A DNA stretch of 64,000 bases from Bacilli bacterium (GCA_045628045.1 JAZQOV010000011.1:4912-68911), one strand, 5' to 3'. Shown: positions 13,010 to 64,000, counted from the first letter of the stretch. The notes: generated from the letters alone by a model not told the origin. A program made the numbers and translations.

Positions 13010-13167
13010 CAGTTATATGACAGCCACGTATAGGCAAAACACTAATCATACGTCTTGTTACGGTACATGTGGAGACTGTCGTTTCGTTAATTTTTAAGCA
13101 AAAATAGCAAATTGTTGTTGCTCCCTGCAATTTGACTTTTATATATTGTTTCTTTACAATTCATATT

Positions 13168-17468: not shown

Positions 17469-17474
17469 ATTTTT

Positions 17475-17625
17475 ACCATAAAGAGTACGGCGAGGGACAA
17501 GCCCTATGACCCGTCAGCAACCTGCGTATAGCAAGGTGCTAAAGCTTGACTGATGGTTGTTTTTATTTTATAAGCCGTCAGTATCGATGGCTTTTAATTT
17601 CTTTGTGGTAGATAAGGAGGCTTAT
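17475..17625 (+). promoter_or_regulatory. About 150-nt structured 5' leader (attenuator/riboswitch-like) ending in an intrinsic terminator just before the RBS
   Basis: Nested stem ACGG-cg-AGGG-acaag-CCCU-auga-CCGU. CAACC...GGUUG + UUUUUAUUUU. Terminator hairpin GCCGUC-aguauc-GAUGGC + UUUU (17569-17596). RBS AAGGAGG at 17614-17620. Confidence 0.35.
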
Positions 17626-34099: not shown

Positions 34100-37000
34100 A
34101 TGACTAAACTTTTTAAAAAGATTAAGTTGTTCTTGTTAGTCTCTGTCGCCGGCTTTATGGGCTTAGCTACTGCCGCTGGTGTCAAAGGCGCAAAAGCAGA
34201 CGCAGAACCAGAAACAAAGTTAGTTTCACTTGGTAGCACTGCTGCAACAGGCACAAACTTAACAGCAGGGGTTACCGAAGAAGCAGACGGTTTCCTTGTT
34301 GAGGTCGCAGATTCATATGCGGCAAAATACGCAACAAAGGTTGGCGCAAAACTCGTTAATCTTGCTGCAGATTCATTCAGACTTGAAGATATTTGCTTTG
34401 AGTTAGAAAACGAATCAGAGGATAGGTACTTTACAAAAGCCTTCCGTGCTGAAGGAGAAGCAAAGAGAAACAGCAAATTCGTTGCTGCTGCTACAGATGC
34501 TGGATTCAGTCTTGTAGGCTCAAGCGATAACATAAAACTTACCAGCTTCATGAAAGAAGAAATTAAATCTGCTAATTATGTTACCGTTGATGCAGGCTTC
34601 GGTGGTTATGCTGAATACTTAAAGTATGCAGTTAATAATTTAATCGAAGGCAATCAAAAGGTTGAAATTAACGGAATCATGGAATTATTGCTTCAACCAA
34701 TCAACAAGATTCTCGAAGAAGCAGTTAAATCAAACGAAGTTACTAAAGCAATCTTTGAAGTTGTTGATGAACTCATTGATGTTGATCTCGTTAAATTATT
34801 AAACGTTGGTGATGCAAAGAAGGCAGTCAGCGATTTTGTTAAACTTGTTAATGAAATGCTCGCTAGCTACTTCAATAGCATTGACACATTAACTTCAAAA
34901 ATTCGTTCACTTAACAAAGATGCAAAAATTATTGTTGTTGGCGCATCAAATCCAGTTAAAAACGGAAAAGTCAGAATTGGTGACAAGACTGTTAATGTTG
35001 GCAAATACATCGATGCAATTATCAAATTAGTTAATAACTATACTCAAATCACAACTAAGAATTCTGGTAGTTATTTCTTTGTCGATCCAGTTAAATTTGA
35101 CCTTGATACAGTCGAAGGACACGCATCAGTTGCAGAAGCAATTGACGCAGTCGTAACAGCTGGCAAATCAGCAAGAGCAGTCTTCATCGAAGATACTGTT
35201 GCTGCTATTAAGAAAGCTGTAACTGAACTTATTGATCATATTTTTGGTAAGAAAGTTTCTAAAGGCGCTATTACAAAAGGTGTCTTAAATGAAAGAAATG
35301 ATTTAACAGAATTTATTATGGAATTCTTTGATGGCGTTATCTATTCAGCCTTCCCAGGTATTGAACAAGAACACGTTGTCACAGAAATTGTTGATTTCTT
35401 TAGCGAAGATATATTCAGCAAAATCAACGCATTCGCTGTTGGTATTGTTGCAAAAGTAACAGATGAAATTATTCCTGCTGCTTTTGATCAAGTTATGACT
35501 GTTCTTAGCGGTGTTGCTTGCTATATCGAAAACGTTGTTATCGAAGCAATCAACTTTGTTGCAGCAATTCCAGCAAACATGGAAAACTGTGCAAGTGTCC
35601 AAATGATTATGGATTTCTATAATCAAACCTTCGAAACTAAAGTTAACGTCCTTGCTGATGTTCTTTCAAAAGCATTCATTGATTTAAGAGGACAAATTAC
35701 TGAAGGTGTTGGATTCTTATTTACTATTCCAGCTATTTTAACAGTTGAAATTCGTTCCGCTTTATTAGCAAAACTTGTAACTGTTTTTGTCTCACATCCA
35801 ATTGATTCATTAACAATTGCATATTACTTTAATAAACTCTTTGGAGATGATGCTTCAGCATTACTCGAAAAATTAGGTGCACTTAAAGATGGCAACGCAG
35901 TTGAACAACATATTTATAATATTTTGTTTGATGTTGATGCATTATTCAAAGGTGTTCCAGCAGATGTAGAAGGATTCTTTGCTCAATCAGATCTTCTCAT
36001 TGCAAAAATTGTCAGAGCTCTTGATGGAATCGTTGCAGAAATTCATTCAGAAGTTGCTCCAATGATTGCCGAAATCTTTGATACAGTTGTTGAAAATATT
36101 CAAAAGGTTATGCCACATGAATACTTATTAGTTTCAGAAATTGATGCTAATGAAAACATTCACTATTATGCAGAATGTCAAGATTGTGGCTTCCGCGTAG
36201 AAGTTTATCCAGAATATACTTGGAAAGTTCTCGAAGATGATTATGGAAATGGCGTTGGCATTGGTTGTGATGTTGAATTTACATTACCATCAGTTCGTGG
36301 CGAAGAACCAGTTGTCATCAAAGGCTATGCAGTTGGTGCTCCTAGAGAAATGTCTACTAATCCATTCTTAGAGATGGAAGTTGTTGAAATTCCAGAAATT
36401 GAATTTGGCGATTACGGTGTAGTCGTTGATCAAACTCCAGGTGTTGCTAAATTCACTGTTGAACATGTCTATTTCGAAGAAAATGATGAATATGTTGACG
36501 AAGTTTACTTCGATGAAGAACTTTGCTTAGATTTCGTTCTCGATCCTATTTGCTATTTCGATTCTGGATATTATTATCAATCTGTTGCAAAATTTGACGC
36601 ATACACTCTTCTTGGCGATGAATTGTGCTACATTGGTACAGTTAAATTTGAAGGAAAAGTTAATGCAGAAAGCCTTAAATTAGATCTTGAAAACAAGATT
36701 GCAACATTCGAGACCGTTTATGGAGTTGATGAATTAAGTAGCACATTCTCCTTAGCACATAGTTACGGATATACACCATACGTTAGCACTTATGAATTCG
36801 ACGATGAAACAGGTGTCTTAACAGCTATTGGTACAATTGTTACAGAAGGTGGCAAAAACTTCGATTATGAAGAAAGCGTTAGCTTTGCAGATGGCACACT
36901 TCATTTCTATGATGAAGATCAATATGATGAAGATGACAATCTAGTTTATGAAGAAGGTTTCACTGCTGAATTTGAAGTCTTCGGCACACAACAAATTTCA

Positions 37001-38488
37001 TATCACATGGAAGATGTTGAATATGTTTTCGACAAGAAAGAGGCCACATACACAGCAAGCGGATATGTCACATCTAACAACGTTGGTGATCAAATCCAAT
37101 TCTATGTAGAAGAAACCACTGATGCATATATTGCAAAGAAAACAACTCCAGCCGGATTCTGCATTTGCATGGACTTCGATTTCCCAGGATTCGCTGATTA
37201 TTGCAAATTATTACAAGTTTCAGGTATTCAATATCGTTGGGATATGGAAGAATTAAGCTGTTTAGCAACATTCTATGTTACTTCCCAAACTGATTCTGAT
37301 ATTAGTTTCATGTTCTATGAATATGCCACTGTTGAAGATTATAGTGGCGTTGAAGTTACTGCTGATGGTAGACTCTGTGCTGATTTCACTTTAGTTCCTG
37401 ATTCATATATGGGTGCAAATGTATCTGAAGTTTACACACGTATATATAATAAGGACGCAGGCACAGCTGTTGAACATTCAAACTACTATATTGATGGTGT
37501 TAAAGCTGGTGAAACAAATGTTGTTTACGAATTAGAAGGTGAAGCTTTAGTTCAACATTATATGGACGGATCATGGGCAGTTGGCTATGTTATTGCCGGA
37601 ACCGAATATGCTATACCATTCTATGATTTAGAAGTCGAAGAAATTCCTACATTTGTAAAAAATGAAAACGGCAATTTCGAAGCAACAATGAAATTCGTTG
37701 ATCCACTTGGACAACACTTTGAAGGCAAATATCTTTTACAAAATGCTATCTATGCTAATTCACAAATTGCAGAAGGCTCTTCAGTTGAATACACATTAAG
37801 TGAAGACGGATCAACATTCACAGCATCTGTCACCTTAGTTGATATATTCGACTTTACTTACATAGTTGAAGAAACAGTACCAGCAGTTAGTGAATATAAG
37901 ATTCTTCCAGACGGAACAACTGTCTTTACGTATAAAAACGCAGTAGACTTTACCTTAAAGAATTTATTCAAAGGTTGTTCTGAAGAAGTTAGAGTTTCAG
38001 GAACCCCACTTGCTGTATTTGCAGAAGGTGGTAAGGCATCTGTTAGTGGTGTTGGTGTTTCATTCAGCGAAGGTGCATTAGAATCATTAAGCGATTCTGC
38101 TGCATTAGTTGCTAATACAACAAAGACCGAAGATGGAACAATGCTTGATATTAAGATTGAAGATCTTGGTAGAGAAGTTGAATTTGATGGTGAATGTACA
38201 GTTACAGTCCCATTTGATGAAAAAGTTCCAACTGGTTGTGAAGTCAAAGTTTATTACCAAGGTGCTGATGGTGAAGTTGATATGGGTGCTGTCTATGATA
38301 AGACAACAGGTACTGTATCATTCAACACTACACACTTCTCACAATACCGTGTTGTTGTTGAAAGAGTCGGCTTAGGCTTATGGTGGATTTTAATCGGATT
38401 TGGCATTCTTCTTGCTGTTGCAGCAGTTTGCTACTTCGTTATTATTAGACCACGCACAAATAAGAAGGCTAAAAAAGGGAATAAATAA
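34100..38488 (+). CDS. Giant (1462 aa) surface protein with N-terminal signal, degenerate SGNH-hydrolase-like N-domain, acidic central region and C-terminal TM anchor
   Basis: Perfect RBS AGGAGG. Signal MTKLFKKIKLFLLVSVAGFMGLATAAG. LVSLGSTAATG aligns with the GDSxxxG block of the two paralogues but lacks Asp and Ser. VTVDAGFGGYAEYL aligns with their block III. C-terminal LWWILIGFGILLAVAAVCYFVIIRPR. Confidence 0.7.
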   Translation: MTKLFKKIKLFLLVSVAGFMGLATAAGVKGAKADAEPETKLVSLGSTAATGTNLTAGVTEEADGFLVEVADSYAAKYATKVGAKLVNLAADSFRLEDICFELENESEDRYFTKAFRAEGEAKRNSKFVAAATDAGFSLVGSSDNIKLTSFMKEEIKSANYVTVDAGFGGYAEYLKYAVNNLIEGNQKVEINGIMELLLQPINKILEEAVKSNEVTKAIFEVVDELIDVDLVKLLNVGDAKKAVSDFVKLVNEMLASYFNSIDTLTSKIRSLNKDAKIIVVGASNPVKNGKVRIGDKTVNVGKYIDAIIKLVNNYTQITTKNSGSYFFVDPVKFDLDTVEGHASVAEAIDAVVTAGKSARAVFIEDTVAAIKKAVTELIDHIFGKKVSKGAITKGVLNERNDLTEFIMEFFDGVIYSAFPGIEQEHVVTEIVDFFSEDIFSKINAFAVGIVAKVTDEIIPAAFDQVMTVLSGVACYIENVVIEAINFVAAIPANMENCASVQMIMDFYNQTFETKVNVLADVLSKAFIDLRGQITEGVGFLFTIPAILTVEIRSALLAKLVTVFVSHPIDSLTIAYYFNKLFGDDASALLEKLGALKDGNAVEQHIYNILFDVDALFKGVPADVEGFFAQSDLLIAKIVRALDGIVAEIHSEVAPMIAEIFDTVVENIQKVMPHEYLLVSEIDANENIHYYAECQDCGFRVEVYPEYTWKVLEDDYGNGVGIGCDVEFTLPSVRGEEPVVIKGYAVGAPREMSTNPFLEMEVVEIPEIEFGDYGVVVDQTPGVAKFTVEHVYFEENDEYVDEVYFDEELCLDFVLDPICYFDSGYYYQSVAKFDAYTLLGDELCYIGTVKFEGKVNAESLKLDLENKIATFETVYGVDELSSTFSLAHSYGYTPYVSTYEFDDETGVLTAIGTIVTEGGKNFDYEESVSFADGTLHFYDEDQYDEDDNLVYEEGFTAEFEVFGTQQISYHMEDVEYVFDKKEATYTASGYVTSNNVGDQIQFYVEETTDAYIAKKTTPAGFCICMDFDFPGFADYCKLLQVSGIQYRWDMEELSCLATFYVTSQTDSDISFMFYEYATVEDYSGVEVTADGRLCADFTLVPDSYMGANVSEVYTRIYNKDAGTAVEHSNYYIDGVKAGETNVVYELEGEALVQHYMDGSWAVGYVIAGTEYAIPFYDLEVEEIPTFVKNENGNFEATMKFVDPLGQHFEGKYLLQNAIYANSQIAEGSSVEYTLSEDGSTFTASVTLVDIFDFTYIVEETVPAVSEYKILPDGTTVFTYKNAVDFTLKNLFKGCSEEVRVSGTPLAVFAEGGKASVSGVGVSFSEGALESLSDSAALVANTTKTEDGTMLDIKIEDLGREVEFDGECTVTVPFDEKVPTGCEVKVYYQGADGEVDMGAVYDKTTGTVSFNTTHFSQYRVVVERVGLGLWWILIGFGILLAVAAVCYFVIIRPRTNKKAKKGNK

Positions 38489-49496: not shown

Positions 49497-49868
49497 CTAG
49501 ATCTTCTTAAAATGTTTCTTAGTCTTCTGTGCGTCTAATAATTCTTTTTCCAATTCTTCTTTCTTTGGGAGATGAGTTATATATTTAGTCACAAAGATTT
49601 GGTTCGTAATATTTCCTAGTGCATATTCTACCTGTATGTGATCATAGTCAGTACACATGACAATACCAACAGGGTCATTGTCGCTCGATTTATTAACGTT
49701 TTCCTTAAAATAATTTAGGTAAGTGTTAATTTGGCCCATTACATCTTTTTTAAATGGAGTGGCTTTTAGCTCAATGAGCACATAACATTTAAGATTTTCA
49801 TTATAGAACACTAAATCGACAAAATATTTCTTGTTATCAATTAAAAATTGATACTGATTATCATTGAA
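49497..49868 (-). pseudogene. C-terminal fragment of a YhcG/DUF1016-family PD-(D/E)xK nuclease gene split by the IS element
   Basis: The frame is open from 49868. FNDNQYQFLIDNKKYFVDLVFYNENLKCYVLIELK... aligns with the YhcG core (…FIDLLFYHRRLRCLVLIDLK…). Confidence 0.65.
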
Positions 49869-50010
49869 CTACCCCCACTTAAACATTCTATGTTTAGAAG
49901 ATGGGGGATTCCTACTCAAGAATCCTCGAGGATTCAGTGTCGATAGGCTAACCCCGTAGTTCCTACGGTTTGGTGGACTACCACTATTGTTTTTGAAGTA
50001 CTAATCTAAT
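49869..50010 (-). ncRNA. Predicted omegaRNA (reRNA) scaffold of the TnpB element (3' end of tnpB plus right end)
   Basis: Dense hairpins on the minus strand: CCCCCAUCU...AGUGGGGG, GAAUCCUCGAGGAUUC palindrome, CCGUAGGAACUACGG. Position is as expected for IS605-family omegaRNA. Confidence 0.4.
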
Positions 50011-51132
50011 TCCTTCTTTTTTGATATTAATTGCTGCATTTATATCTCTATCATGCTTTCTACCACAGATAGGACAAATCCAATCTCTATCATTTAATTC
50101 AAGACTTTTGTTGATGTAACCACAATCACTGCAAGTTTTACTAGACGGAAAGTACCTATCTACTTTTATTAATTCCTTACCTAACCATCTTAATTTGTAA
50201 TCTAGAAAATTGACAAAAGTTCCATATGCTCGATCAGATAGATTTCTGCCCAACTTCATTTTTGTATCTTTTGATTGCATTGATTTCAAATCTAAATTTT
50301 CTACAAAAACATAATCGTATTTATTTGCAATTTTTCTGGATTCTTTATGCAAAAAATCTTTCCTAGAATTTGAAATATGAAGTTGAAGTTTTCTGACTTT
50401 TTGCCAGGATTTAATGGAGTTTTTGCTACCTTTTTGGCATTTTGATGCTCTTCTGGTTAATTTTGCAAGTTTCTCCATTTCGTTTTGAAGATACTTTGGC
50501 ATATCTGCGTGATTGCCATCGCTATCGACATAAAGATGTGACAAAGAAAAATCTAATCCTATTGAGTTGTTGATATCAAGTTTTTCAAGCTTGTCGAATA
50601 ACTCGACGTTTGGATTATCTTCTTCACCAGTCAATGTCACAAAATACATGTTTGCAACTCTAGAGATGGTGACTGTGGTAAAAGAGAATGATTCAGGCAT
50701 CAAACGAGATACTACAACTTTAACTCTGCCTAATTTAGGAATTTGGATTTCGTTACCATCAAGGCGGAGGTTATTGTTGATTTTCATAGTTGTGTAGCTA
50801 TGATCATTTCTTTTGGATTTAAATTTTGGAAAAGAACCTCTATGTTCAAAGAAATTAATATACGCAGCATGTAAATGAATAATGGCTTGTTGCAAAGCAA
50901 CACTATCAACTTCTTTTAAGTATTCATACCCTTCTTTGTAATCAGGAAGTATTTTGACTAAATCAAATTTTCTCAATTTAAAAGAAGGATCTTCCGCGTG
51001 CTTTTCGACACACATTTCAAGAAAATCATTATAGACTTGGCGAACGCATCCTAAAGTTTTCTCAATTTGTTGTTTTTGAGAAGAATTAGGATAGATTCGA
51101 AATTTATAAGCTTTCTTTATTTTCTTTTCCAT
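49984..51132 (-). CDS. tnpB: TnpB (IS605 OrfB family RNA-guided nuclease)
   Basis: N-terminus KAYKFRIYPNSSQKQQIEKTLGCVRQVYNDFL. RuvC-I IGLDFSLSHLYVDSDGN. RuvC-II YVFVENLDLKSM. Zn-finger CSDCGYINKSLELNDRDWICPICGRKHDRDINAAINI. Confidence 0.9.
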   Translation of the reverse strand: MEKKIKKAYKFRIYPNSSQKQQIEKTLGCVRQVYNDFLEMCVEKHAEDPSFKLRKFDLVKILPDYKEGYEYLKEVDSVALQQAIIHLHAAYINFFEHRGSFPKFKSKRNDHSYTTMKINNNLRLDGNEIQIPKLGRVKVVVSRLMPESFSFTTVTISRVANMYFVTLTGEEDNPNVELFDKLEKLDINNSIGLDFSLSHLYVDSDGNHADMPKYLQNEMEKLAKLTRRASKCQKGSKNSIKSWQKVRKLQLHISNSRKDFLHKESRKIANKYDYVFVENLDLKSMQSKDTKMKLGRNLSDRAYGTFVNFLDYKLRWLGKELIKVDRYFPSSKTCSDCGYINKSLELNDRDWICPICGRKHDRDINAAINIKKEGIRLVLQKQ

Positions 51133-51239
51133 ACTTATATTATACTATCATTTCTTAAGAAATGATAGTGTTATTTCATTTTTTGCTTGCAATTCATCCC
51201 GCCGCTTTACGAGCTTCAAGCGTGGGTCTTCTTGCTAAA

Positions 51240-51887
51240 TTAGATAAATCTAAAACCTGAGCCTAGTTCTAAAAGGAATTCTTTCATGTGCGTTATAATA
51301 CCTTTTTCAATTTCTTTTTCCCTAAGGTTAAAACCTTTTTTGAAGAAATTAATTACAATCGGATCTACCATTACATCTTTTGGTTCAACAATCTGATTCC
51401 CAAGAGTGGATAATTGATTCTTTTTTGCCTCTATATTTTCTTTTGAGCCCAGTAAGATTCTTTGATAGTATCCCGATTGTATTTGTCTTTTTAAATCCCT
51501 GACAGACCATCTTTGTTTTGCACACTCTATTTCATAGAATTTTCTTTCTTCATCATTTTTTACATTTAGAAGACAAAAGTAATGCCCCCATGATAAAGTG
51601 GGAAACAGTGTTTCCCAATTTTTATATATAATATAAAAATTTAACATTGCTTTAATGTTTCTTCTTGAATACCCAGAGCCGAATTCTTTGGTTAGCTCAT
51701 TAGAAATTGAACTAATCGTGCGCTTTTTATAATCGCTTTTTCCTTTATTGGAGTCGATGTCTTTTTGAATTTGTTCCCCTATATACATATAAAGCTTAAG
51801 TAATTCAGTATTAACGTTATATATGATTTTTGCCTTCGTTGTTTCTATTGCATTTTTTAAATTTATTACTAGTTTATTTTCTTTCAT
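51240..51887 (-). pseudogene. N-terminal fragment of the YhcG/DUF1016-family nuclease gene (ends ...LGSGFRFI* at the IS junction)
   Basis: DUF1016 N-domain pattern ...TLSWGHYFCLLNVKNDEERKFYEIECAKQRWSVRDLKRQI... RBS GGAGGAGG. Confidence 0.65.
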
Positions 51888-51979: not shown

Positions 51980-52121
51980 TTTTGAAAATTGACTGTTTTA
52001 TGATTATTTTTAGTTTTATTAGATAGGTGAGATTTAATCAATAATGAATATACTTTTATAGAAAAAGTATTTTAAATTCATTATTATATTAGTATAAGTT
52101 TTTAAAAAGAGGCCTTTTATT

Positions 52122-53297
52122 ATGTATGACATTAATATAAAAGTTTGCGAAAATACTAAAGTTTTTATTTTTAATGGTCCTATCGACTCTAACGTTACAG
52201 ACGAAATTAAAAATTTCGTTGAATCGAATTCTTCTGGCTCTGATAGCGTTATTTTTGATATGGAAAAAGTTCCATACATGTCTAGTGCAGGCCTTAGAGT
52301 AGTGCTTAAGACTGCTAAATCAGTAAAAGAATTTGAAGTTATCAATGCTTCTGTAGAGTTATATAACATTTTCGACATGGTTGGGTTTACCCAAATGATC
52401 AAAATTAAGAAAGCCATGAGAGAAATTTCTATCGAAGGAAAAGAACTTATTGGAGAAGGTTATATGGGTAAAGTCTATAGACTTGATCCAGATACAATCA
52501 TCAAAGTATTTAAAAGAACCTCTGATACTTCTGATATCGAAAGAGAAATTTCTTTGGCAAAGAAAGCATTCATTCTTGGAGTTCCTACCGCAATACCTTT
52601 TGACATAGTCAAAGTTAAAGAAGGTGGCTACGGTTCTGTATTTGAACTTCTTAAATCATCTTCATTTAATAAATTATTTATTAATCATCCTGAGAAGGAA
52701 GATGAATACATTAAGATGTACGTGAACATCATTAAGACAATTACTTCTATTGAGGCTAAAAACCCTAGTGAGTTCCCTCGTAAGATAAATGATGCGTTAA
52801 CTTGGGTAAATGGTCTTAAGGAAGCAAAAGCCTATGATGAAGCTACACTTGCTAAACTTGAAAAATTAGTTAACACAATTCCTGAGAGTTCGCACTTAAT
52901 TCATGGTGATTGCCACATCAAAAATATTATGATGCAAGGTGATGAACCATTCCTTATTGATATGGACACTTTGGGTGTTGGGCACACCATATTTGAGTTA
53001 ACTGCAATATTCTTAACTTATATCGGATATCCTGATAAATTCCCAGGAAATGTCCAGGAATTCCTAGGTATTTCCGATGAAACCGCTAAGAAATTATTCT
53101 ATTCAACAATTGATTCTTTATACGCAGATAAATCAAAAGAAGAAAGAAACACAATTGTTGAGAAATGTGCTTTGTTTGGTTATATGTGGTTAACATACAA
53201 GACATTATTATTTGAACCAGAAAATAAAGTAAGACTTGATAACGCAAAAGAGAAAGTTATGAGTCTTATTGATAAATACGACACACTTAATTTTTAA
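52122..53297 (+). CDS. STAS domain fused to a protein-kinase-like / aminoglycoside-phosphotransferase-like domain
   Basis: N-terminal STAS (MSSAGLRVVLKTAKSV...IFDMVGF). Gly-rich loop GEGYMGKVYR. Lys IIKVFK. Catalytic HGDCHIKNIMM. IDMDTLG. Confidence 0.65.
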   Translation: MYDINIKVCENTKVFIFNGPIDSNVTDEIKNFVESNSSGSDSVIFDMEKVPYMSSAGLRVVLKTAKSVKEFEVINASVELYNIFDMVGFTQMIKIKKAMREISIEGKELIGEGYMGKVYRLDPDTIIKVFKRTSDTSDIEREISLAKKAFILGVPTAIPFDIVKVKEGGYGSVFELLKSSSFNKLFINHPEKEDEYIKMYVNIIKTITSIEAKNPSEFPRKINDALTWVNGLKEAKAYDEATLAKLEKLVNTIPESSHLIHGDCHIKNIMMQGDEPFLIDMDTLGVGHTIFELTAIFLTYIGYPDKFPGNVQEFLGISDETAKKLFYSTIDSLYADKSKEERNTIVEKCALFGYMWLTYKTLLFEPENKVRLDNAKEKVMSLIDKYDTLNF

Positions 53298-53315
53298 TGA
53301 AAGAAGGACACGAAA

Positions 53316-53612
53316 ATGGAAATAAACAAACTTGTAGAGAAAGACACTCTCACACTTGCTATTGAAGGAAGACTTGATACTTTAACATCTCCAACCCTTC
53401 AAGAAACAATTAATTCATCACTTGAAGGCATTGTTCATTTAGTAATTGATCTAAAGAAAGTTGTCTATATTTCGAGTGCCGGATTAAGAGTAATTTTAAG
53501 TGCACAAAAATTAATGAATACGAAAGGTGATATGGTTGTAAAAAATTGTTCAGCTGAAGTCCTTGAAGTTTTTGAAATGACAGGATTTACTGAGATTTTA
53601 ACGATAAAATAA
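53316..53612 (+). CDS. STAS-domain anti-sigma-factor antagonist (SpoIIAA/RsbV-like)
   Basis: 98 aa. ISSAGLRVILSAQKLM...VFEMTGF. RBS GAAGGA. Confidence 0.8.
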   Translation: MEINKLVEKDTLTLAIEGRLDTLTSPTLQETINSSLEGIVHLVIDLKKVVYISSAGLRVILSAQKLMNTKGDMVVKNCSAEVLEVFEMTGFTEILTIK

Positions 53613-53613
53613 T

Positions 53614-56484
53614 ATGGAATTCCTGGATATTTTTAAATTTATAATAGCTGCAATCATTCCAATTCTTTTAAGCGTTGGCTGTATTTATCTTGAGAAAACA
53701 AGAAGATTTTCTAAGTTAAACAAATACGTTAAAGCTTTAATATTTGGAGTTATTTTTGGCATCAGTTCAATTAGTGGAACTTTACTTGGTTTAAAACTAC
53801 CAAATGGCGCAATCATCAACGTGCGTGATGCCTCTCCTATTATATGTGGTCTTCTTTTTGGTGGACCATCAGGAATTTTGGCTGGCTTAATTGGCGGCGG
53901 CTTTAGAGCACTTACTCCTCTTTGGGAACCATCGACAGCTTACACAGTTGTTGCATGTTCTATTTCAACCGCAATGGCTGGTGTATTTACTGTGTTTGTT
54001 AGACATTTCATCTTTGATGATAAAAAAGGTACTTGGTACTATGGATTCTTCCTTGGCGTATTAGTTGAAGACTTCCATATGATGATGTCTGTGCTTACAC
54101 ACACAGAAGATATTGTTAAGGTTTATAACTCAGTTATAAAAGTATGTACAGTTCCAATGGTATTAGCAAATTCATTAGCGGTAATGATTGCAATTATTAT
54201 TGTTAATTTAATAAATCACGAGAAAATATTTGAAAAAGAAGTCAGAACTCATATTTCTACAAAGGTTCAGGTTTCTTTGATTCTTTCTCTTGTTGTTTCT
54301 TATGTTGCAACTGCGTTATTTACGAATATGTCTGTTAATAAAGTTGTTCAAACAAATATTAAAGGTCAATGTGAAAACGCTATAAGCGATGTTATTAATA
54401 ATGTTGATGACACAATCAACAATGTTATGAGTGACAAACTTGATGAAGTCGCAATAAAACTTCTTGATGAAGTAAAACCATTAGAAAAAGATAGGCTTTT
54501 ACGTAAAGAAGCATTAGTAAGTATTCTTAATGATTTCTCTGGTGAGATTTCTGAAATCAATATTGTTGGCACTGATGGTTTTGTTCATTATTCCACAGAT
54601 CAATACGATTTTATGGAAGACGGAAGTGGACCATTTAACATGGAAATTGGTGACCAATCAAGAGAATTTAATGTCTTACTTAAAGAAGGCGAAACAAACT
54701 ATTTTATCCAGGAATTCCGCGAGATTTCTGCGTATGATGGCGGAAAATCAATGAAATATGCTGGCTATAGATTTGATGCTGAAGACATTGAATCAGACTT
54801 CTGTTATTTCCAAATTGGTTTAGATGCTGCAAGGTATCACGAACTACTTCAAGACTATGTTGATGAATGTGCTAAATTTAGACACATTGGTGAAGAAGGA
54901 TTCGTTGTAGTTAGCGATGAAAATGGTGCAATTGTTTCAACAATCGTTGATTGTCCATTTACTGAAACAATTGATGTAAATAAGTTCCTAAACGATGGTT
55001 ACGATAAATATTACACTTACTCTAAATTTGTTGAAGGTTACTACATTGTTGCTTTTGCAGGCGCTGAAGAAAGTGATTTAGCATCCGTAATTTCATTCAC
55101 TGCAATTTCTCTTGCTGAAGTTTTTGTTTATTTGCTTTTATATTGCGTTTTATATATAGCAGTTAAACGTAGAATCGTTGATAAAATTAAAACTATAGGC
55201 TTAAGCCTAAATGAAATTTCTTCAGGAAACTTAGATGTTGTTGTTAATCAAAGAGACAGTTATGAATTTGATTCATTAAGTAACGACATTAATAAAACTG
55301 TTGGAACTCTTAAAGAGTTCATTGCGAAAGAAGCTAATAAGAATGCTGAAGAGTTAGCATTTGCTAAAAACATTCAATATTCTGTTCTTCCAACCGCTTT
55401 CCCAATGAATGATAGATTTGAAATTTATGCTTCTATGTCAACCGCCAAGACTGTTGGTGGTGACTTCTATGATTTCTATTTTATAGATAGAGAGCATGTA
55501 TTAATTGAAATCGCTGATGTTAGTGGAAAAGGTATTCCTGCCGCTATGTTCATGATGAGAGCAAAATCTGTTCTTAAATCACTTATAGAATCAGGTATTG
55601 GAATTGAAAATGCCTTTATTGAAGCAAATAGAAAACTTTGTCAAGGTAATGATACTCAAACATTTATTACGGTTTGGGGTGGAATTATCGATTTAACTAC
55701 AGGACATGTTGACTTTGTCAACGCTGGTCATAATCCTCCAATTATTTGTAGAGATGGCAAATTTGAGTACTTACATAGTAAACCAGGCTTTGTTTTAGCA
55801 GGTTTAGAAGGATTTAAATACGTTAAGCAAAGCTTTGACATTAAGCCAGGTGATATGATTTATCTTTATACTGATGGTGTTACTGAAGCTAATAACGAAA
55901 AACATGAACTTTATGGAGAAGAAAGACTTCTTAAAGCAATTGGAGATAAAACATATACTTCTAAATCTATTTGTGAAACTGTCTCAAAGAGTTTGAAGAA
56001 GTTTGTGAATGATGCAGAACAATCTGATGATATTACAATGCTCGCATTTAAATTCTATGATGTTGAGCTCGCTAATATTAAAGTTGTGGATGCAGACTTA
56101 AAGAATTTACCAGAAATCATAGATTATATCGATGATTTGCTTGATAAAAATAACGCCACATTATCTGCAAAATCACAAATCGATGTAGCAGTGGATGAGA
56201 TATTCTCAAATATCGCATTCTACGCTTATCCAGAAGGCCAAGTTGGTAAGGTCAAAGTTTCAGTCATTATGTCTAAAGACAATGAAGAAATGACCATTAT
56301 CTTTGAAGATAAAGGAAAAACATATAACCCACTTGAGAAAGAAGATCCAGATACTTCACTATCTCTAGAAGAGAAGTCTATTGGTGGACTAGGTATATTT
56401 ATTGTTAAAAAGACAATGGATTCATTAGAATACGATAACGTTAATGGTCATAACGTATTAACCCTCAGAAAGAAGATTCATTAG
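53614..56484 (+). CDS. Membrane sensor: multi-TM + extracytoplasmic domain + HAMP + SpoIIE/PP2C phosphatase + C-terminal RsbW-like HATPase_c (anti-sigma kinase) domain
   Basis: N-terminal 5-6 TM helices. HAMP-like VDKIKTIGLSLNEISSGNLDVVV. PP2C GGDFYDFYFID...IADVSGKGIPAAMFMM...DGVTEA...DDIT. HATPase VDEIFSNIAFYAY...SIGGLGIFIVKKTMDSLEY. Confidence 0.75.
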   Translation: MEFLDIFKFIIAAIIPILLSVGCIYLEKTRRFSKLNKYVKALIFGVIFGISSISGTLLGLKLPNGAIINVRDASPIICGLLFGGPSGILAGLIGGGFRALTPLWEPSTAYTVVACSISTAMAGVFTVFVRHFIFDDKKGTWYYGFFLGVLVEDFHMMMSVLTHTEDIVKVYNSVIKVCTVPMVLANSLAVMIAIIIVNLINHEKIFEKEVRTHISTKVQVSLILSLVVSYVATALFTNMSVNKVVQTNIKGQCENAISDVINNVDDTINNVMSDKLDEVAIKLLDEVKPLEKDRLLRKEALVSILNDFSGEISEINIVGTDGFVHYSTDQYDFMEDGSGPFNMEIGDQSREFNVLLKEGETNYFIQEFREISAYDGGKSMKYAGYRFDAEDIESDFCYFQIGLDAARYHELLQDYVDECAKFRHIGEEGFVVVSDENGAIVSTIVDCPFTETIDVNKFLNDGYDKYYTYSKFVEGYYIVAFAGAEESDLASVISFTAISLAEVFVYLLLYCVLYIAVKRRIVDKIKTIGLSLNEISSGNLDVVVNQRDSYEFDSLSNDINKTVGTLKEFIAKEANKNAEELAFAKNIQYSVLPTAFPMNDRFEIYASMSTAKTVGGDFYDFYFIDREHVLIEIADVSGKGIPAAMFMMRAKSVLKSLIESGIGIENAFIEANRKLCQGNDTQTFITVWGGIIDLTTGHVDFVNAGHNPPIICRDGKFEYLHSKPGFVLAGLEGFKYVKQSFDIKPGDMIYLYTDGVTEANNEKHELYGEERLLKAIGDKTYTSKSICETVSKSLKKFVNDAEQSDDITMLAFKFYDVELANIKVVDADLKNLPEIIDYIDDLLDKNNATLSAKSQIDVAVDEIFSNIAFYAYPEGQVGKVKVSVIMSKDNEEMTIIFEDKGKTYNPLEKEDPDTSLSLEEKSIGGLGIFIVKKTMDSLEYDNVNGHNVLTLRKKIH

Positions 56485-57820: not shown

Positions 57821-57895
57821 TCTTTAGTATTGTATTGCAATTTAACGAGAATTATTTGTAATATTGTTATCAGGCGAGATGGGTCTGACAAAAGG

Positions 57896-57925
57896 AAAGA
57901 GATTGGCTGCTACCAATCTCTTTTT
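57896..57925 (+). terminator. Rho-independent terminator (in repeat unit 1)
   Basis: AAAGAGATTGG-cugcua-CCAATCTCTTT followed by TT. Confidence 0.8.
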
Positions 57926-57977
57926 CATACTTTGGAATACAGACTGTAGAATTAATCATGAATTTTGCAAAAATGCA

Positions 57978-58011: not shown

Positions 58012-58066
58012 ATCAGGCGTGGGATCTGACAAAAGGAAAGAGATTGGTTGCATCCAATCTCTTTTT
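58012..58066 (+). ncRNA. Candidate about 55-nt small RNA (repeat unit 2), running from the promoter to the terminator AAAGAGATTGG-uugcau-CCAATCTCTTTTT
   Basis: A consensus promoter is immediately upstream and a perfect terminator hairpin sits at 58037-58066. A homologous unit lies at 57867-57925. Confidence 0.3.
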
Positions 58067-58446
58067 CATAGTTTGGAATACAGGCGTGGGTTTCTAACCC
58101 TTAATCATTGATTTTAATAATCAGTAAAATAAGAGCTAGAATAAGAAGGTACTCCACTAAGGACATCCTCCCTTCCCAAACGCCTGAATGCAAACTCCGA
58201 CGTTCGAAGACCGCCATCATATTCCTTTCTATGAAGTCAAATGAATTATTGACCCCACACTAACTAATTAGAGAAAAATAAGCAAAACTGCTAAAAAATA
58301 TTTTTAATATATTAATATATTACAATTTAGCACTTTTTCTGAGACTCAAAAAAGTACGGAAAAAAACTTGCTTTTATACTTAAAAAGGAATAATTTAACA
58401 TAAATGTTTAATTACATTGCTTTACTCTAGAAAAGAGGTAGAAGTT

Positions 58447-61400
58447 ATGAAGAAAAGTAGATTTTATACTTTATTAGCTCTATCAAGTATCCTTACTTTA
58501 GGAACTGCTTTTGCAGCCACCTCAATTAATGATGAAACTAATAGAAACCAAGGCATTAACGAATTAAATGCAGAGTCTTTGTCAGAGGATAAACTTTATG
58601 TTGCTCCTGCTGCAGTTTCTCCATATACATACACTACTTCTCCAACTAATGAACCGTGGTATAAAAATAGCCACGAATACCATTCTACAGCAACTGGATC
58701 AGATGGGTTTGATTATCAAAGAAACCAAAAAACTACAATGTATGATTTCATGAATGTTTCTGAAACATGGAACTCATATCGTGGTGAAAATGTTAAAGTA
58801 GCCGTTATTGACACAGGTTGTTATACATCACATGAAGACTTTAACGGCACAAATATAAAAACAATCTCTAAAAACATGGTGTCAGGAACAACTGGATTAT
58901 CAGCTGTAAATGATGCTCATGGACATGGAACAACTTCTGCAGCAACAATTGCGGCCGCTGTTAATGGTAAAGGCGGCACCGGAATTGCACCAAATGTAGA
59001 ATTAATAGTTTTGAAATGCGTTGATGCTAACAATGCTTTTAGTAATACTGCAATTAACAATGCTCTTCAATATTGTATTGATAATGATGTTGATGTCATT
59101 AACATGTCAATTCAAGGTTACAACGTTTATTCAAACTTTTCCTCAACATATGTTGAAGATTTTGGAAATTACACGGTAAACACAACTTCATCTGGCATAA
59201 TGACTCCTACACAATTCTCTACAAAAATTAAAGCTTGTCACGATGCTGGTATTACTTTAGTTGCCGCTGCCGGTAACTATAATACTTCCAAAGAATCATA
59301 TCCTGCTGCCAATGATTATGTCATTGCTGTTGGCTCCACAGGCTTAACGAGTGCAACATCAAAAGCTGGTTATTCCAATTATGGAGATTGGCTTGATATT
59401 AGTGCTCCTGGTTACGTTTATACTCCATCGCTATCCGGAACCGACCAATATTCTGTTACAAATGGCACAAGCTTTTCTGCTCCTTTGGTTACTGGTGCAA
59501 TAGCACTATATAAATCAAAATATCCTGATGCAACTCCTGATCAAATTGAAGAAGCTCTAAAAGCGACTGCTCAACCAATTAATTGGCAAGGTGGCGCTGG
59601 GGCAGTTAATGTTGGAGCTTTCTTGGAATATGCTCCTAAGTCACCAGTTAGCAGTTTAGCTCTTCCTGATGAAACAAAGACATTATCTGTTGGAGAAACA
59701 TATCAACTAATTCCAACAATTTTACCGTCTGATGCTTCGCAAGAAGTTACTTATGGTAACACAGACAATTCTGTTGTATCAATTTCAAATACTGGATTAG
59801 TCACTGCATTAAAAGCAGGGACATCAACAGTCACTGTGTATAGTAAAAACACATCCATCTATGACACAGTTGTAATTACTGTTAATGCTGTTACTGGCGA
59901 GAAAAAAACAGTATCAAAAGAATGGACTTTAACCAGTTCTAATACTGATTGGACAGCATCAGGAAACGAAACATATTTTAGCCAGCCTTATGGTTACAAA
60001 GCAAATGGTGGAACTCTCATTACAACAAATTCAATAGAAGACTTTACTAAAACAAACAAAACAGAGATTAAAGTTAGTTTTAAGTGTCTCCAAAATGGTG
60101 GTTCAAGTTCAAAAATCACTATTTACCTTTACGATAGCAGTGGAAACGTATTAGGTTCAGAAGTTTTTACTCCTGTAAATAAAAATTCAGCTTCCAATAC
60201 CGAATATTGCACAGCAACATTCACATCAAATTTAACTAATGCAGCCAAAATAGGAATGAAGGTCACTACGTTTGGAAAGAACATTTTGGTTAATGGTGCA
60301 AAGTATGAATTGACTTATCTAGATTCAGGAGCAACCCCGTCAGTTAAGACGCTTTCTAGCATTTCTGTTTCTAATCAAAAAACCACATTTACTGTTGGTG
60401 AAACATGGACATTTGGCGGAACAGTAACTGCTACTTACTCTGACAATTCAACTGCAGATGTTACTTCTAATGTCACATTCAGCGGTAACACAACATCATC
60501 CGCCGGTCAAAAAACGGTAACTGTTTCTTATAAAGAAGGCAGTGTTGAAAAAACAACAACCTATTCAATTACTGTTTCAGCACCGGTTGTTACAAATTAC
60601 ACTGTCACATTTAACTCAAATGGTGGTTCGGGCACAATGACTAGCAAAACCACTACTGGTTCTACATATGTTGTTCCTGAATCTAACTTTACAAAAGAAG
60701 GCTATACATTTGACAAATGGGCTCTTAATAGTACATCTGGTAGTAAATACGCAGCCGGAACAACAATCAATAATATCTCCTCTAATATCACGTTATATGC
60801 TACATGGATTCAAGATTTAACACCTCAACCAGGTGATTATTACAAGGATGTCGACACAAGCTCTCAAGAAAATCTAATTTCAACATTGCATTCAACCATT
60901 TCACAGGGAACTGTAGATGTTGGTTATGATGGCCTTTGGGATGCTTATGAAAAAACAGATTTACGTCCTGGGACAAATTATTATTGGGATATGTATTCCA
61001 ATTATAATTTTACAAAATCTTCGCCAAATAGCAATTATAAAAAAGAAGGTGACGCAGTAAATAGAGAGCACACTGTTCCACAATCTTGGTTTAATGAAAA
61101 ATCTCCAATGAAAGCCGACTTATTTCATGTTTATCCAACTGACGGCTATGTAAACAATAGAAGATCTAATTATCCTCATGGTGATGTTGGTAATGCAACA
61201 TATACTTCTGAAAACGGAAGTAAATTGGGAACAGCTAGCTTTCCAGGAATTTCAGGCACCGTTTTTGAAGTAATTGATGAATATAAGGGCGATTTTGCCC
61301 GCAGCTATTTTTATATGGCTACCAGATACTATAATACGTTTAATGATTGGGATTCAAACGTGATATTCCAAAAAACACCGCCGTATATGACTTCTGCTTT

Positions 61401-64000
61401 CATCAATCAATATTATGCATGGCATATAGCTGATCCGGTTTCAGAAAAGGAAGTAAACCGTAATGAAGCAGTTTATGGAATTCAGAAAAATAGAAATCCG
61501 TACATTGATCATCCTGAATGGGTTGCATATGCTTTTAAAGGCATTGCTCCAATTGTGGGTGAAAAAACACTTAACTCAATCACTTTAAGTGGTTCACAAA
61601 AAACAGAATTTACTGTTGGTGAAACTTTCTCATATACTGGATTAGTTGTCACTGCTCATTACTCAGACAACACAACAGCAATAGTAACACCAACAAGTGT
61701 TTCTACACCAGACATGAATTCTGCTGGTGAGAAAACAGTTACTGTTACCTATACAGATTCAACAGGAACAAAGACTGATACTTATACTATTACAGTAAAA
61801 AGCAGTGGAGTTACACCAGAGCCAGAAAAACACACAACTGCATTAACACTAGATAAAACAACCGCAACAATAAAAGTAGGAGAAAATCTAACATTAACAG
61901 CAACTAAGACGCCATCTGATTCAGTTGATGGAATTAGTTGGTCCACGGACAATTCTTCTATTGCAACAGTTTCAAATGGTGTAGTAACAGGCGTTTCTCC
62001 AGGAACTGCAACTATCACAGCTACATCTAATGGCATCCCTGCCACTTGTTTAGTTGAAGTTAAATCACAAAGCACTAGTAGTACTGTCACAGCATCAATT
62101 GATTTTACAAATAGTAATGATTCTTACAAAGACAGTGTTGGAAATACATGGACAGGAGCCGGAGGCAATAAAGGAAATTATTATCGACTTGATAGTGCTG
62201 ATTCTATAACAAGCTCATCAATTTCTATTGATACTTCAAAAACAATAGATCTTTCTCTATACATTGGTTCATATGGTAGTGGCACCAAAACGCTAAGTGC
62301 TTATGCAATTAATAGTTCTGGAACAGTTGTTACAAACCAAGTTTCAATGTCACCAACATCTACGAGTTCAAATAAATTTACAGGGACTCTAACTTTTAAT
62401 AACACCTCAGATTCAAATATTAAAATTGTTTTTAAAACAACTTCTGGTTCAATTCGTTTTTACAAAGGAGATATTACTTATACTCCGTTGTCAATTGGAC
62501 CACAAGTAACAAGCATTTCATTAAGTGAATCAGAATTAACTTTTGATTTATATGATAATTATTCGCCTCAAACACTTACTGCTAGTATTGAAGCAGATGT
62601 CGGTGCCGACAAAACAATACTTTGGACATCTTCTGATGAAACTGTCGCAACAGTTGTTGATGGTGTTGTTACTCCTCACTCCAAAGGAACTGCAACAATT
62701 ACCGCAACATCTAAAGCAAATTCAGAGATAAAAGCTACTTGTAAAGTTGAAGTTACTGATTCTAGTCCGATACCGGTCACCGGAATAACATTAAATGAAA
62801 CTTCAGCAACACTTATAATTGGTTCAACCTTGACATTAGAAGCAACAATCACACCTACTAATGCTACAAATAAAAATATTAGTTGGTCTTCTAATAATGA
62901 AAATATTGCTACTGTTTCAGATGGCCTTGTTACAAGCAAGGCTATTGGTACAGCTATTATAACAGTTACGACAGATGACGGCGGTTTTACTGCAACTTGT
63001 ACAATAACTGTCAGTGCCGCACCTGTTATCACATATCAACTTGAAGCAGATGAAACAGAAGTTCCATTTATGAGCGGAACAAATCATATTGCTTCGGTTG
63101 GAGTCAAATTGTATCAATACACAAATGGTGTTAAAGGAAACCAGGTTAGTTCAGGAAGCTCTAATGTTGATACTTCTTCATTAGGCAACAAAACAATTTC
63201 TTATATTTATCAAGATATTACATACGAAACGATAGTTAAAGTAACAAATTATGGTGCTGATGTTGGCTTGCCAACCCAATTAGATCCAGTAACTAATAAC
63301 ATAACGTCAAGTTTTACAGTCACTAGCAGTACTACTAGCTCCTGGAGTATGCCAACTGGATGGACTGTTACAAGTAGTGGAACAACTGGTTACGAAGCCA
63401 ATCGAGGAATTCAATTACAAAAGAACGCAAAAATATCGTTCGTTCTTCCTTCATATAAGAATATTACTTCCATTTCTTTAGATGTTGCAAGAAGCAGTAA
63501 TGGATCAGGTTCTTTTACGGTAACCGTTGATGACGAATTAGTTAAAACAATTTCTAGTTTTAATACTACAAAAACTACACAAACGATTAAATTTGATGAG
63601 GCAAAATCAGGTGTTATTAAAATTGATGGCAGCGCTTCTGCTAGCTCATTATATATCAAAGCAATTTCTATAAATTATCAAGAAATTGTAGAAGGTCAAT
63701 TAATTGAACACAATGCCACACCAAATCAACAAGCGATAGCCTGGTCTGATTATTTTATTAAGTTAACTGGTGGCGGAGCATTTGATGGACCATGTAAAGA
63801 ATCAACTCCAGAAGCAAGAAGAGCTGCACTTCAAGAAATTTGGGGTGAAGTCTCTGCAGAATATGGTTACATGGTAAATGGATCTAAAGATGCATTCTGT
63901 GATTCATCTGCCACTGGTTCTATTTCAGAGGCAATGCAACATTATAGTTACATTGTTGATACATATGGATTAGATAATTTCGTTAAAGATGGATCAGGTA
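58447..64000 (+). CDS. Giant secreted/surface multidomain protein, 3' end beyond the window (over 1850 aa in-window). It combines a subtilisin-like S8 peptidase, Big_2 and Flg_new repeats, an Endonuclease I (EndA/NucM-type) nuclease domain and further Big_2 repeats.
   Basis: RBS AAGAGG. Signal MKKSRFYTLLALSSILTLGTAFA. S8 triad contexts VAVIDTG, HGHGTTSA, GTSFSAPLVTGA. Flg_new unit YTVTFNSNGGSGTMTS...EGYTFDKWAL. Endonuclease_1 motifs REHTVPQSWF, DLFHVYPTDGYVNNRRSNYP, FARSYFYMAT. Not in the ORF track because there is no in-window stop. Confidence 0.75.
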   Translation, partial: MKKSRFYTLLALSSILTLGTAFAATSINDETNRNQGINELNAESLSEDKLYVAPAAVSPYTYTTSPTNEPWYKNSHEYHSTATGSDGFDYQRNQKTTMYDFMNVSETWNSYRGENVKVAVIDTGCYTSHEDFNGTNIKTISKNMVSGTTGLSAVNDAHGHGTTSAATIAAAVNGKGGTGIAPNVELIVLKCVDANNAFSNTAINNALQYCIDNDVDVINMSIQGYNVYSNFSSTYVEDFGNYTVNTTSSGIMTPTQFSTKIKACHDAGITLVAAAGNYNTSKESYPAANDYVIAVGSTGLTSATSKAGYSNYGDWLDISAPGYVYTPSLSGTDQYSVTNGTSFSAPLVTGAIALYKSKYPDATPDQIEEALKATAQPINWQGGAGAVNVGAFLEYAPKSPVSSLALPDETKTLSVGETYQLIPTILPSDASQEVTYGNTDNSVVSISNTGLVTALKAGTSTVTVYSKNTSIYDTVVITVNAVTGEKKTVSKEWTLTSSNTDWTASGNETYFSQPYGYKANGGTLITTNSIEDFTKTNKTEIKVSFKCLQNGGSSSKITIYLYDSSGNVLGSEVFTPVNKNSASNTEYCTATFTSNLTNAAKIGMKVTTFGKNILVNGAKYELTYLDSGATPSVKTLSSISVSNQKTTFTVGETWTFGGTVTATYSDNSTADVTSNVTFSGNTTSSAGQKTVTVSYKEGSVEKTTTYSITVSAPVVTNYTVTFNSNGGSGTMTSKTTTGSTYVVPESNFTKEGYTFDKWALNSTSGSKYAAGTTINNISSNITLYATWIQDLTPQPGDYYKDVDTSSQENLISTLHSTISQGTVDVGYDGLWDAYEKTDLRPGTNYYWDMYSNYNFTKSSPNSNYKKEGDAVNREHTVPQSWFNEKSPMKADLFHVYPTDGYVNNRRSNYPHGDVGNATYTSENGSKLGTASFPGISGTVFEVIDEYKGDFARSYFYMATRYYNTFNDWDSNVIFQKTPPYMTSAFINQYYAWHIADPVSEKEVNRNEAVYGIQKNRNPYIDHPEWVAYAFKGIAPIVGEKTLNSITLSGSQKTEFTVGETFSYTGLVVTAHYSDNTTAIVTPTSVSTPDMNSAGEKTVTVTYTDSTGTKTDTYTITVKSSGVTPEPEKHTTALTLDKTTATIKVGENLTLTATKTPSDSVDGISWSTDNSSIATVSNGVVTGVSPGTATITATSNGIPATCLVEVKSQSTSSTVTASIDFTNSNDSYKDSVGNTWTGAGGNKGNYYRLDSADSITSSSISIDTSKTIDLSLYIGSYGSGTKTLSAYAINSSGTVVTNQVSMSPTSTSSNKFTGTLTFNNTSDSNIKIVFKTTSGSIRFYKGDITYTPLSIGPQVTSISLSESELTFDLYDNYSPQTLTASIEADVGADKTILWTSSDETVATVVDGVVTPHSKGTATITATSKANSEIKATCKVEVTDSSPIPVTGITLNETSATLIIGSTLTLEATITPTNATNKNISWSSNNENIATVSDGLVTSKAIGTAIITVTTDDGGFTATCTITVSAAPVITYQLEADETEVPFMSGTNHIASVGVKLYQYTNGVKGNQVSSGSSNVDTSSLGNKTISYIYQDITYETIVKVTNYGADVGLPTQLDPVTNNITSSFTVTSSTTSSWSMPTGWTVTSSGTTGYEANRGIQLQKNAKISFVLPSYKNITSISLDVARSSNGSGSFTVTVDDELVKTISSFNTTKTTQTIKFDEAKSGVIKIDGSASASSLYIKAISINYQEIVEGQLIEHNATPNQQAIAWSDYFIKLTGGGAFDGPCKESTPEARRAALQEIWGEVSAEYGYMVNGSKDAFCDSSATGSISEAMQHYSYIVDTYGLDNFVKDGSG

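Follow-up and report, generated by a model that had tools for sequence, protein, structure and literature searches.

Partner switching is mostly presented as a means of freeing a sigma factor. The RsbU/RsbW/RsbV and SpoIIE/SpoIIAB/SpoIIAA systems of Bacillus are built from three folds: a STAS protein with a phosphorylatable serine, a HATPase_c_2 kinase, and a phosphatase of the PPM/PP2C type. The same folds, with their catalytic motifs, are present in three adjacent genes on a 64,000-nucleotide (nt) stretch of DNA from a Bacilli bacterium (GCA_045628045.1, JAZQOV010000011.1:4912-68911), the whole of which will be referred to as the window. Gene 1 (52122-53297, 391 amino acids (aa)) encodes a STAS domain fused to an APH/choline-kinase-like domain, gene 2 (53316-53612, 98 aa) a stand-alone STAS protein, and gene 3 (53614-56484, 956 aa) a membrane sensor with a PP2C phosphatase and an RsbW-like serine kinase. 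The three open reading frames (ORFs) are on the + strand, exactly at the positions given in an earlier note on this DNA. In comparison with the Bacillus systems, no linked sigma factor was found among the scanned ORFs of the window, the kinase and the phosphatase are on one membrane-anchored chain, and a second STAS domain is fused to an enzyme. Sequence comparisons make it likely that the trio works as one signaling module, a partner switch whose proposed output is the enzyme encoded by gene 1 and not a sigma factor.

A kinase and a phosphatase on one chain are also found in HsbR (Pseudomonas), CrsR (Shewanella), SypE (Vibrio fischeri), and Rv1364c (Mycobacterium tuberculosis). The earlier note had singled out this arrangement as unusual; both activities are indeed predicted for one polypeptide, but these four proteins are alike in this respect. 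HsbR, which has a REC-PP2C-kinase organization, sets the phosphorylation of HsbA at Ser56, and HsbA regulates diguanylate cyclases (bioRxiv 10.1101/2024.11.25.625174). SypE controls SypA (PMC10120452). In the CapK-CapS system (EMBO J 2026, PMC13373217), the GHKL kinase CapK phosphorylates the conserved Ser of CapS, a fusion of STAS to a winged helix-turn-helix (wHTH) domain, and this switches the fused effector. These precedents make the same switch logic plausible for the window.

There are differences from each of these systems, however. Compared to HsbR-HsbA, CrsR, SypE-SypA, and Rv1364c, the input in the window is a membrane sensor with 5TMR-LYT, dCache-like and HAMP-like parts rather than a REC or PAS domain, and the enzyme, an APH-like kinase, is not bound in trans but joined to STAS in cis. 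The CapK-CapS pair shares with the window a STAS-effector fusion with a conserved Ser and an adjacent GHKL kinase, and it is likewise free of a sigma factor. On the other hand, the effector of CapS is a wHTH repressor while that in the window is kinase-like, and CapK-CapS lacks a PP2C phosphatase, which the window module has. Single-stranded DNA activates CapK, and the CapK-CapS pair is located upstream of immune operons. In comparison, the genes flanking the window module encode housekeeping or surface proteins, and no PADLOC match was found here. A defense-system reading, raised by weak TCAD9 matches and by AbiEii, YezG and HD-CE neighbors or fusions, was rejected as PADLOC gave no match for any protein. 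The parts and the switch logic of the module are already known, while the STAS-fused kinase output and the architecture of the sensor are not described. HsbA, SypA, and CapS illustrate that a STAS protein can itself be the output, and the window module extends this idea to a large family without a name.

The fusion of a STAS domain to an APH/choline-kinase-like domain in gene 1, as claimed in the earlier note, was recovered by Pfam. The STAS domain covers residues 4-99 (52131-52418, E value 2.4e-12), and the kinase-like domain residues 103-391 (52428-53294), with an APH match at 110-300 (E value 4e-10). The AlphaFold2 (AF2) model has a predicted local distance difference test (pLDDT) score of 93.3 and a predicted template modeling (pTM) score of 0.80. 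A linker of about 10 residues joins the STAS domain to the N-lobe of the kinase, and the G-loop (residues 111-116) starts roughly 12 residues past the end of the STAS domain, indicating that the two domains are tightly coupled.

The kinase domain has a GxGxxG G-loop in the style of eukaryotic protein kinases (ePKs), and besides it a Lys-Glu pair, an HxDxxxxN loop, and a metal-binding Asp. These are located in GEGYMGKV (52452-52475) for the G-loop, 52497-52511 for the ATP-binding Lys128, HGDCHIKN (52902-52925) for the catalytic loop, and IDMDT (52956-52970) for the metal site. The bilobal, kinase-like fold and these motifs are shared with the superfamily of APH, choline-ethanolamine kinase, MTR kinase, and FN3K (PF01636, and the TIGR02172 paralogues of Fibrobacter). 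Judged by the motifs, the kinase of the fusion is catalytically intact and apparently active. Lys128, Asn268 and Asp280 are conserved in all 463 distinct members of the family that were compared, and Asp263 in 462 of them.

Conservation of the STAS domain is equally strict at one position. Ser55 (codon 52284-52286, in the SSAGLR motif at 52281-52298) is found in 462 of the 463 members, while the preceding Ser54 varies slightly (449 of 463). When the two STAS domains of the window are aligned with each other, Ser55 matches the phosphorylatable Ser54 of the lone STAS protein. On this pattern, the fused STAS domain would probably play the part of a receiver domain, with the kinase as its output domain. 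If this is true, STAS behaves like a receiver domain for Ser phosphorylation and controls a whole class of enzymatic outputs.

The family of STAS-kinase fusions is large. A profile search of 1.84 billion representatives gave 974 family members at E≤1e-30 (representatives at 50% identity), mostly from gut and rumen Firmicutes. Their length is near-constant (about 390 aa), and the N-terminal STAS domain is a constant feature, which sets the family apart from the other members of the APH superfamily. At E≤1e-5, 4485 of 8000 scored candidates match the fusion, with no name among the matches listed. A scan of genome contigs with a single protein as query gave two distant proteins, both with APH only. 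No paper describing a STAS-APH fusion was found in a full-text literature search, and a broader search for STAS architectures likewise gave nothing relevant.

Gene 2 is a stand-alone STAS protein, in agreement with the earlier note (Pfam E value 1.1e-16), and it is above the cut-off of the NCBIfam model for the anti-sigma factor antagonist superfamily. It has 33% identity to the fused STAS domain of gene 1. Its Ser54 (codon 53475-53477, SSAGLR at 53472-53489) aligns with the Ser of SpoIIAA that is replaced by Ala in the PDB entry 1tid_B. Both STAS domains of the window therefore have, where helix 2 starts, the phosphorylatable Ser of STAS antagonists, within the motifs quoted in the earlier note. 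Among 37 lone STAS partners of related loci, the YxSSAGLR motif is nearly invariant: both Ser residues as well as the Gly, Leu and Arg are unchanged, the Tyr is found in 36, and the Ala in 35.

Gene 3 has three clear domains by Pfam. A 5TM-5TMR_LYT membrane module is at residues 36-198 (53719-54207, E value 2.2e-22), with an invariant NVRD motif at 53818-53829; a SpoIIE/PP2C phosphatase domain is at 626-814 (55489-56055, E value 5.8e-48); and an RsbW/SpoIIAB-like GHKL serine kinase domain, matching HATPase_c_2, is at 826-953 (56089-56472, E value 2e-20). The hydropathy profile is consistent with this layout, and the AF2 model has a pLDDT of 83.9. P0121, a protein identical to the gene 3 product, is encoded on a 137-kb contig at NCBI. 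The 5TMR-LYT bundle resembles an S-component. Between the transmembrane (TM) segments at 218-236 and 497-515 there is a loop of about 260 aa (54322-55101), which has a dCache/PDC-like fold and is probably extracytoplasmic. The multi-TM, phosphatase and kinase assignments of the earlier note are thus well supported, while the HAMP domain that it also proposed (residues 518-567, 55165-55314) scores 18.1 bits, below the Pfam cut-off of 25 bits. This assignment is nonetheless backed by precomputed HAMP annotations in five homologs of the same architecture (P0139, P0152, P0167, P0179, and P0181) and by the AF2 model, which has a helix (484-536), a loop, and a second helix (550-591) in this segment.

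The metal-binding motifs of the PP2C domain are GGDFYD (55456-55473, just before the Pfam envelope), DVSGKG (55516-55533), TDG (55870-55878), and DDITM (56026-56040). The GHKL domain has the N-box EIFSN (56197-56211) and the G-box motifs DKG (56308-56316) and GGLG (56383-56394). Among 25 sensor homologs (37-81% identity), GGDFYD, DVSGKG, TDG, and the DD pair are invariant, and Glu862, Asn866, Asp899, Gly901, and the GGxG motif of the GHKL domain are kept. Based on these residues, both catalytic domains are intact. A GHKL kinase with N-box and G-boxes and a PP2C phosphatase with metal-binding aspartates, as known from partner switches, are therefore on the gene 3 polypeptide, and a candidate STAS substrate is encoded adjacently.

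The sensor shares its N-terminal 5TMR-LYT module with LytS-type sensors. However, a PP2C and a GHKL Ser kinase take the place of the histidine kinase as output, and the dCache-like loop and the HAMP-like linker are present in addition. No REC or PAS input domain was found in gene 3. Across related loci the sensor N-termini vary, being of the 5TMR-LYT, dCache plus HAMP, Reg_prop/Y_Y_Y or unknown types, as expected for interchangeable inputs that feed a common output.

By homology to the characterized systems, the GHKL domain of the sensor would phosphorylate the fusion at Ser55 and the lone STAS protein at Ser54, and the PP2C domain would remove the phosphate from both. A signal at the sensor would tilt the balance between the two activities. 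From the conservation and the gene fusions (see below), the phosphorylation state of the fused STAS domain, or binding of the GHKL domain to it, may then turn the attached kinase on or off. The lone STAS protein probably competes as a substrate or a decoy, and would tune the switch in this way.

The module is conserved as a unit, in keeping with the suggestion of the earlier note that its gene neighborhood be compared. Locus L090 (82% identity) matches the window in gene content and order, apart from a block upstream of the module (see below). In L091 (59% identity) the trio is retained with the same type of sensor within unrelated flanks, and in L092 (60% identity) the order is retained but the PP2C-HATPase protein is shorter and lacks the 5TMR module. 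Among more distant relatives, a two-gene version is found in L005 and L007, where a 5TMR-PP2C-GHKL sensor is directly upstream of the fusion and there is no lone STAS gene. The order in L009 is sensor, HD_4, fusion, and lone STAS. On gene content, the lone STAS protein is dispensable in some lineages.

An independent scan of metagenomes was based on 80 loci picked solely by the presence of the fusion, and their ORFs were searched with profiles from the window's own domains. At least 3 kb was available on both sides of the fusion in 26 loci. A switch gene (PP2C, HATPase_c_2, or lone STAS) is on the same strand within 3.5 kb of the fusion in about 19 of these (18 by the automated count, with L010, which has two copies of the fusion, added manually). 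Grouped at 70% identity, 14 of the 19 evaluable lineages have partner-switch genes adjoining the fusion. As for the domain assignments themselves, their E values and the conservation over hundreds of homologs rule out chance.

The same parts are also joined covalently. A triple fusion, STAS-APH-HATPase_c_2, is present in at least 120 protein clusters (≥78% identity) from metagenome-assembled genomes of Oscillospiraceae, Ruminococcaceae, and Clostridia, and the names given to them by NCBI are "STAS domain-containing protein", "anti-sigma factor antagonist", and "ATP-binding protein" only. One example is a 524-aa protein in L085, a locus with the order PP2C, triple fusion, lone STAS, and PHP, so that the four parts of the window are rearranged there. 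A fusion in the reverse order, HATPase_c_2-STAS-APH, exists as well, with an adjoining lone STAS gene. Together with the neighborhood, the invariant residues and the lack of a sigma family among the genes searched (see below), these clusters support the view of the earlier note that the locus would be a self-contained phospho-switch with an output other than a sigma factor.

Other architectures were observed in smaller numbers. Fusions of STAS to a Cof-type HAD-IIB phosphatase are found in L024 (817-1929) and L033 (312-1418), where they share an operon with a lone STAS, a PP2C-HATPase protein, and a STAS-APH protein. Rare STAS-APH architectures are represented by P0496 (L095, 652-2490), P0519, P0417, and P0420. 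They include STAS-APH with a C-terminal PolyA_pol head domain (three contigs) or an N-terminal Na+/H+ exchanger (two contigs), and singletons with an N-terminal HD-CE domain or a C-terminal YezG-like domain. STAS-APH-PHP, HD_4-STAS-APH, HD-CE-STAS-APH, and STAS-APH-YezG are all singletons at 90% identity and are evidence of adjacency at most.

With respect to the substrate of the kinase, comparison with characterized enzymes gives little guidance. The sequence identity to characterized or solved kinases is only 11-16%, and a search with the kinase part against PDB sequences gave nothing significant (best E value about 2e-3). Matches to all NCBIfam equivalogs with a known substrate, such as APH(3'), LicA, MtnK, FN3K, and TIGR02172, are far below the cut-offs; the best is TIGR02172, with 92.5 bits against a cut-off of 228.2. 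The nearest structural neighbors of the kinase domain are spread about evenly over choline, aminoglycoside, sugar and antibiotic kinases, and the fold therefore does not identify the substrate.

With less confidence than for the switch itself, the kinase can be suggested to act on a small molecule and not on a protein, perhaps on a nucleotide hydroxyl. The nucleotide idea comes from many other genomes, where the fusion is paired with HD hydrolases or PHP enzymes that could reverse such a reaction. In an unbiased Pfam census of 124 non-switch neighbor ORFs (40 lineages), HD_4 is the sole specific recurrent family, with nine members; the next commonest is the generic ABC_tran, with five. In 12 of the 32 lineages that could be evaluated, an HD_4 gene adjoins the fusion. 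This gene encodes a protein of about 190 aa with an HDxxED motif, and is located immediately upstream of the STAS-kinase gene, frequently overlapping it. Examples are found in L009 (7429-8004) and L037 (482-1054), and further ones in L016, L021, L023 (two copies), L031, L033, L054, L076, and others. The HD_4 protein matches the hydrolase domains of Rel/SpoT, Mesh1, and small alarmone hydrolases. A PHP gene is downstream of the triple fusion in L085 (2184-3092) and L093 (9960-10844), and its product most resembles 3',5'-nucleoside bisphosphate phosphatase and RNase RNM, although under their cut-offs. The HD_4 and PHP families remove 3'-(pyro)phosphates from nucleotides. The STAS-APH-PolyA_pol fusion in three contigs can be counted among the same hints.

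In its most specific form, the proposal would be that the STAS-fused kinases act on nucleotides (or on RNA 3' ends) and, under the control of a partner-switching sensor, make a phosphorylated nucleotide signal, which the HD_4 and PHP enzymes remove. We regard this form as tentative and somewhat improbable. If it is true, many gut and rumen Firmicutes have a previously unrecognized cycle resembling that of an alarmone or second messenger; more generally, a new phosphorylated metabolite or nucleotide signal could be under the control of STAS.

Several observations weigh against the reading as a whole or against its parts. Five of the 19 evaluable lineages carry the fusion without a nearby switch gene. 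L003 and L039 have PP2C but no HATPase_c_2, so the coupling is not obligatory in cis. The rare enzyme fusions include several singletons, which may be artifacts of assembly or frameshifts. No HD_4 or PHP gene is present in the window or its closest relatives, and the nucleotide idea therefore rests on other lineages. Finally, the structural neighbors of the kinase point to no particular substrate class.

The same switch logic could operate with a substrate other than a nucleotide, for example a membrane or cell-wall head group (choline or ethanolamine), a sugar, a xenobiotic, or an antibiotic. This is possible, though not probable. The lead toward lipid head groups came from neighboring GDPD and PLD genes, and it was retained as no more than a minor rival since these are not recurrent, each being present in two loci among more than 90, while HD_4 is by far the commonest non-switch neighbor. 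The low identity to any characterized kinase also speaks against assigning the enzyme to one of these substrates. With regard to antibiotics, there is no obvious mobile resistance element, as the trio is kept amid different flanks in the relatives.

A classical partner switch with its sigma factor encoded elsewhere is unlikely. In such a switch, the GHKL domain would sequester the sigma factor, the lone STAS protein would relieve it, and the fusion would be accessory or unrelated. It is consistent with this that the closest similarity of the GHKL domain is to genuine anti-sigma kinases (RsbW, SpoIIAB, and UsfX), that HsbR and CrsR, with the same PP2C-kinase fusion, are reported as RpoS anti-sigma factors, and that the genome data here span 64 kb. 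However, the cognate sigma factor of a partner switch was not found at any level of the search. No sigma70-family domain was detected by Pfam in the scanned ORFs of the 64-kb window, which comprised nearly all those of at least 100 aa, but neither a 1462-aa ORF (34100-38488) nor ones shorter than about 100 aa. Likewise, the genes listed by Pfam for nine related contigs include no sigma-factor family, and none is recurrent in the census of the 124 neighbor ORFs. The earlier note had also reported no adjacent sigma factor, and the upstream neighbor is a yhcG-like nuclease gene instead. Moreover, it is the STAS-kinase fusion, and not a sigma factor, that co-varies with the switch, and the GHKL domain is covalently fused to the STAS-kinase in the clusters described above. 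The lone STAS protein, required as the antagonist in a classical switch, is missing from the two-gene versions in L005 and L007.

Alternatively, the APH-like domain may be a protein kinase inside the switch, with either STAS domain (the fused or the lone one) or the sensor as its target. It would then give a second input or feedback and would not be the output. The ePK-style motifs described above would fit this role, as would weak NCBIfam similarity to the protein kinases YihE/SrkA, Bud32, and CotS. In L003 and L039 the STAS-kinase and PP2C occur without HATPase_c_2, as though the fused kinase could stand in for RsbW. However, the top structural neighbors are all small-molecule kinases, the HATPase_c_2 kinase is present at most loci, and the phosphohydrolases of the HD_4, PHP and HAD families that recur as partners are better suited to a small-molecule cycle, which makes this reading quite unlikely. 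That the adjacency is incidental, with genes that are independent and have no common pathway, would fit the five lineages without nearby switch genes but is very improbable given the conserved gene order with gaps of 1-18 nt, the conservation of the module within unrelated flanks, and the several independent fusions that join the same parts.

The module thus appears to be a partner switch with an enzyme output, and it is compactly arranged in the window. The gaps are 18 nt between genes 1 and 2, 1 nt between genes 2 and 3, and 9 nt between gene 3 and thyA, which directly follows the trio as the earlier note had indicated; folA is next after thyA. A Shine-Dalgarno-like AAGAGG (52107-52112, + strand) was read directly in the sequence 9 nt before the ATG of gene 1. 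No promoter above chance expectation was found upstream of gene 1, where there are weak hexamer pairs at 51982-52010 and 52059-52087. The thyA-folA pair was considered as a functional partner and rejected: it follows the module only in the window and in L090, and not in L091, L092, L005, L007, or L009.

The yhcG-like PDDEXK nuclease gene upstream of the module (49497-51887, - strand) is split by an IS605-family OrfB/TnpB gene (49984-51132). Its N-terminal part (51240-51887) contains DUF1016_N and the start of YhcG_C, and its C-terminal part (49497-49811) the remainder of YhcG_C. No TnpA was seen at this block. The 2.6-kb block is missing in the syntenic L090, where a phosphotransferase system (PTS) EIIC gene is located 74 nt from the STAS-kinase gene. 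In the window, a PTS EIIC gene and surface-protein genes are found farther upstream.

Downstream of folA, two copies of a 62-nt element (57881-57942 and 58022-58083, 92% identical) precede a giant ORF, and each copy holds a 28-nt palindrome that scores as a terminator on the minus strand. The giant ORF (about 58447-64000, + strand) encodes a secreted protein of more than 1850 aa, which extends past the end of the window and has Peptidase_S8, Flg_new, Endonuclease_1, Big_3, hyaluronate-lyase N-beta, and four Big_2 domains. In L090, too, folA is followed by this gene. Elsewhere in the window, two Fic/DOC-domain genes and an HTH_3/YafQ-toxin pair are among 11827-12711 (- strand), 18156-19214 (+ strand), and 19725-20605 (+ strand), and a DUF285 ('Mycoplasma') protein is encoded at 13132-15582; such genes are in line with a host of low GC content, of the Bacilli or Mollicutes-like. 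The only Rfam match of the window is an S-adenosylmethionine (SAM) riboswitch (RF00162, 51.8 bits) at 17473-17559 on the + strand.

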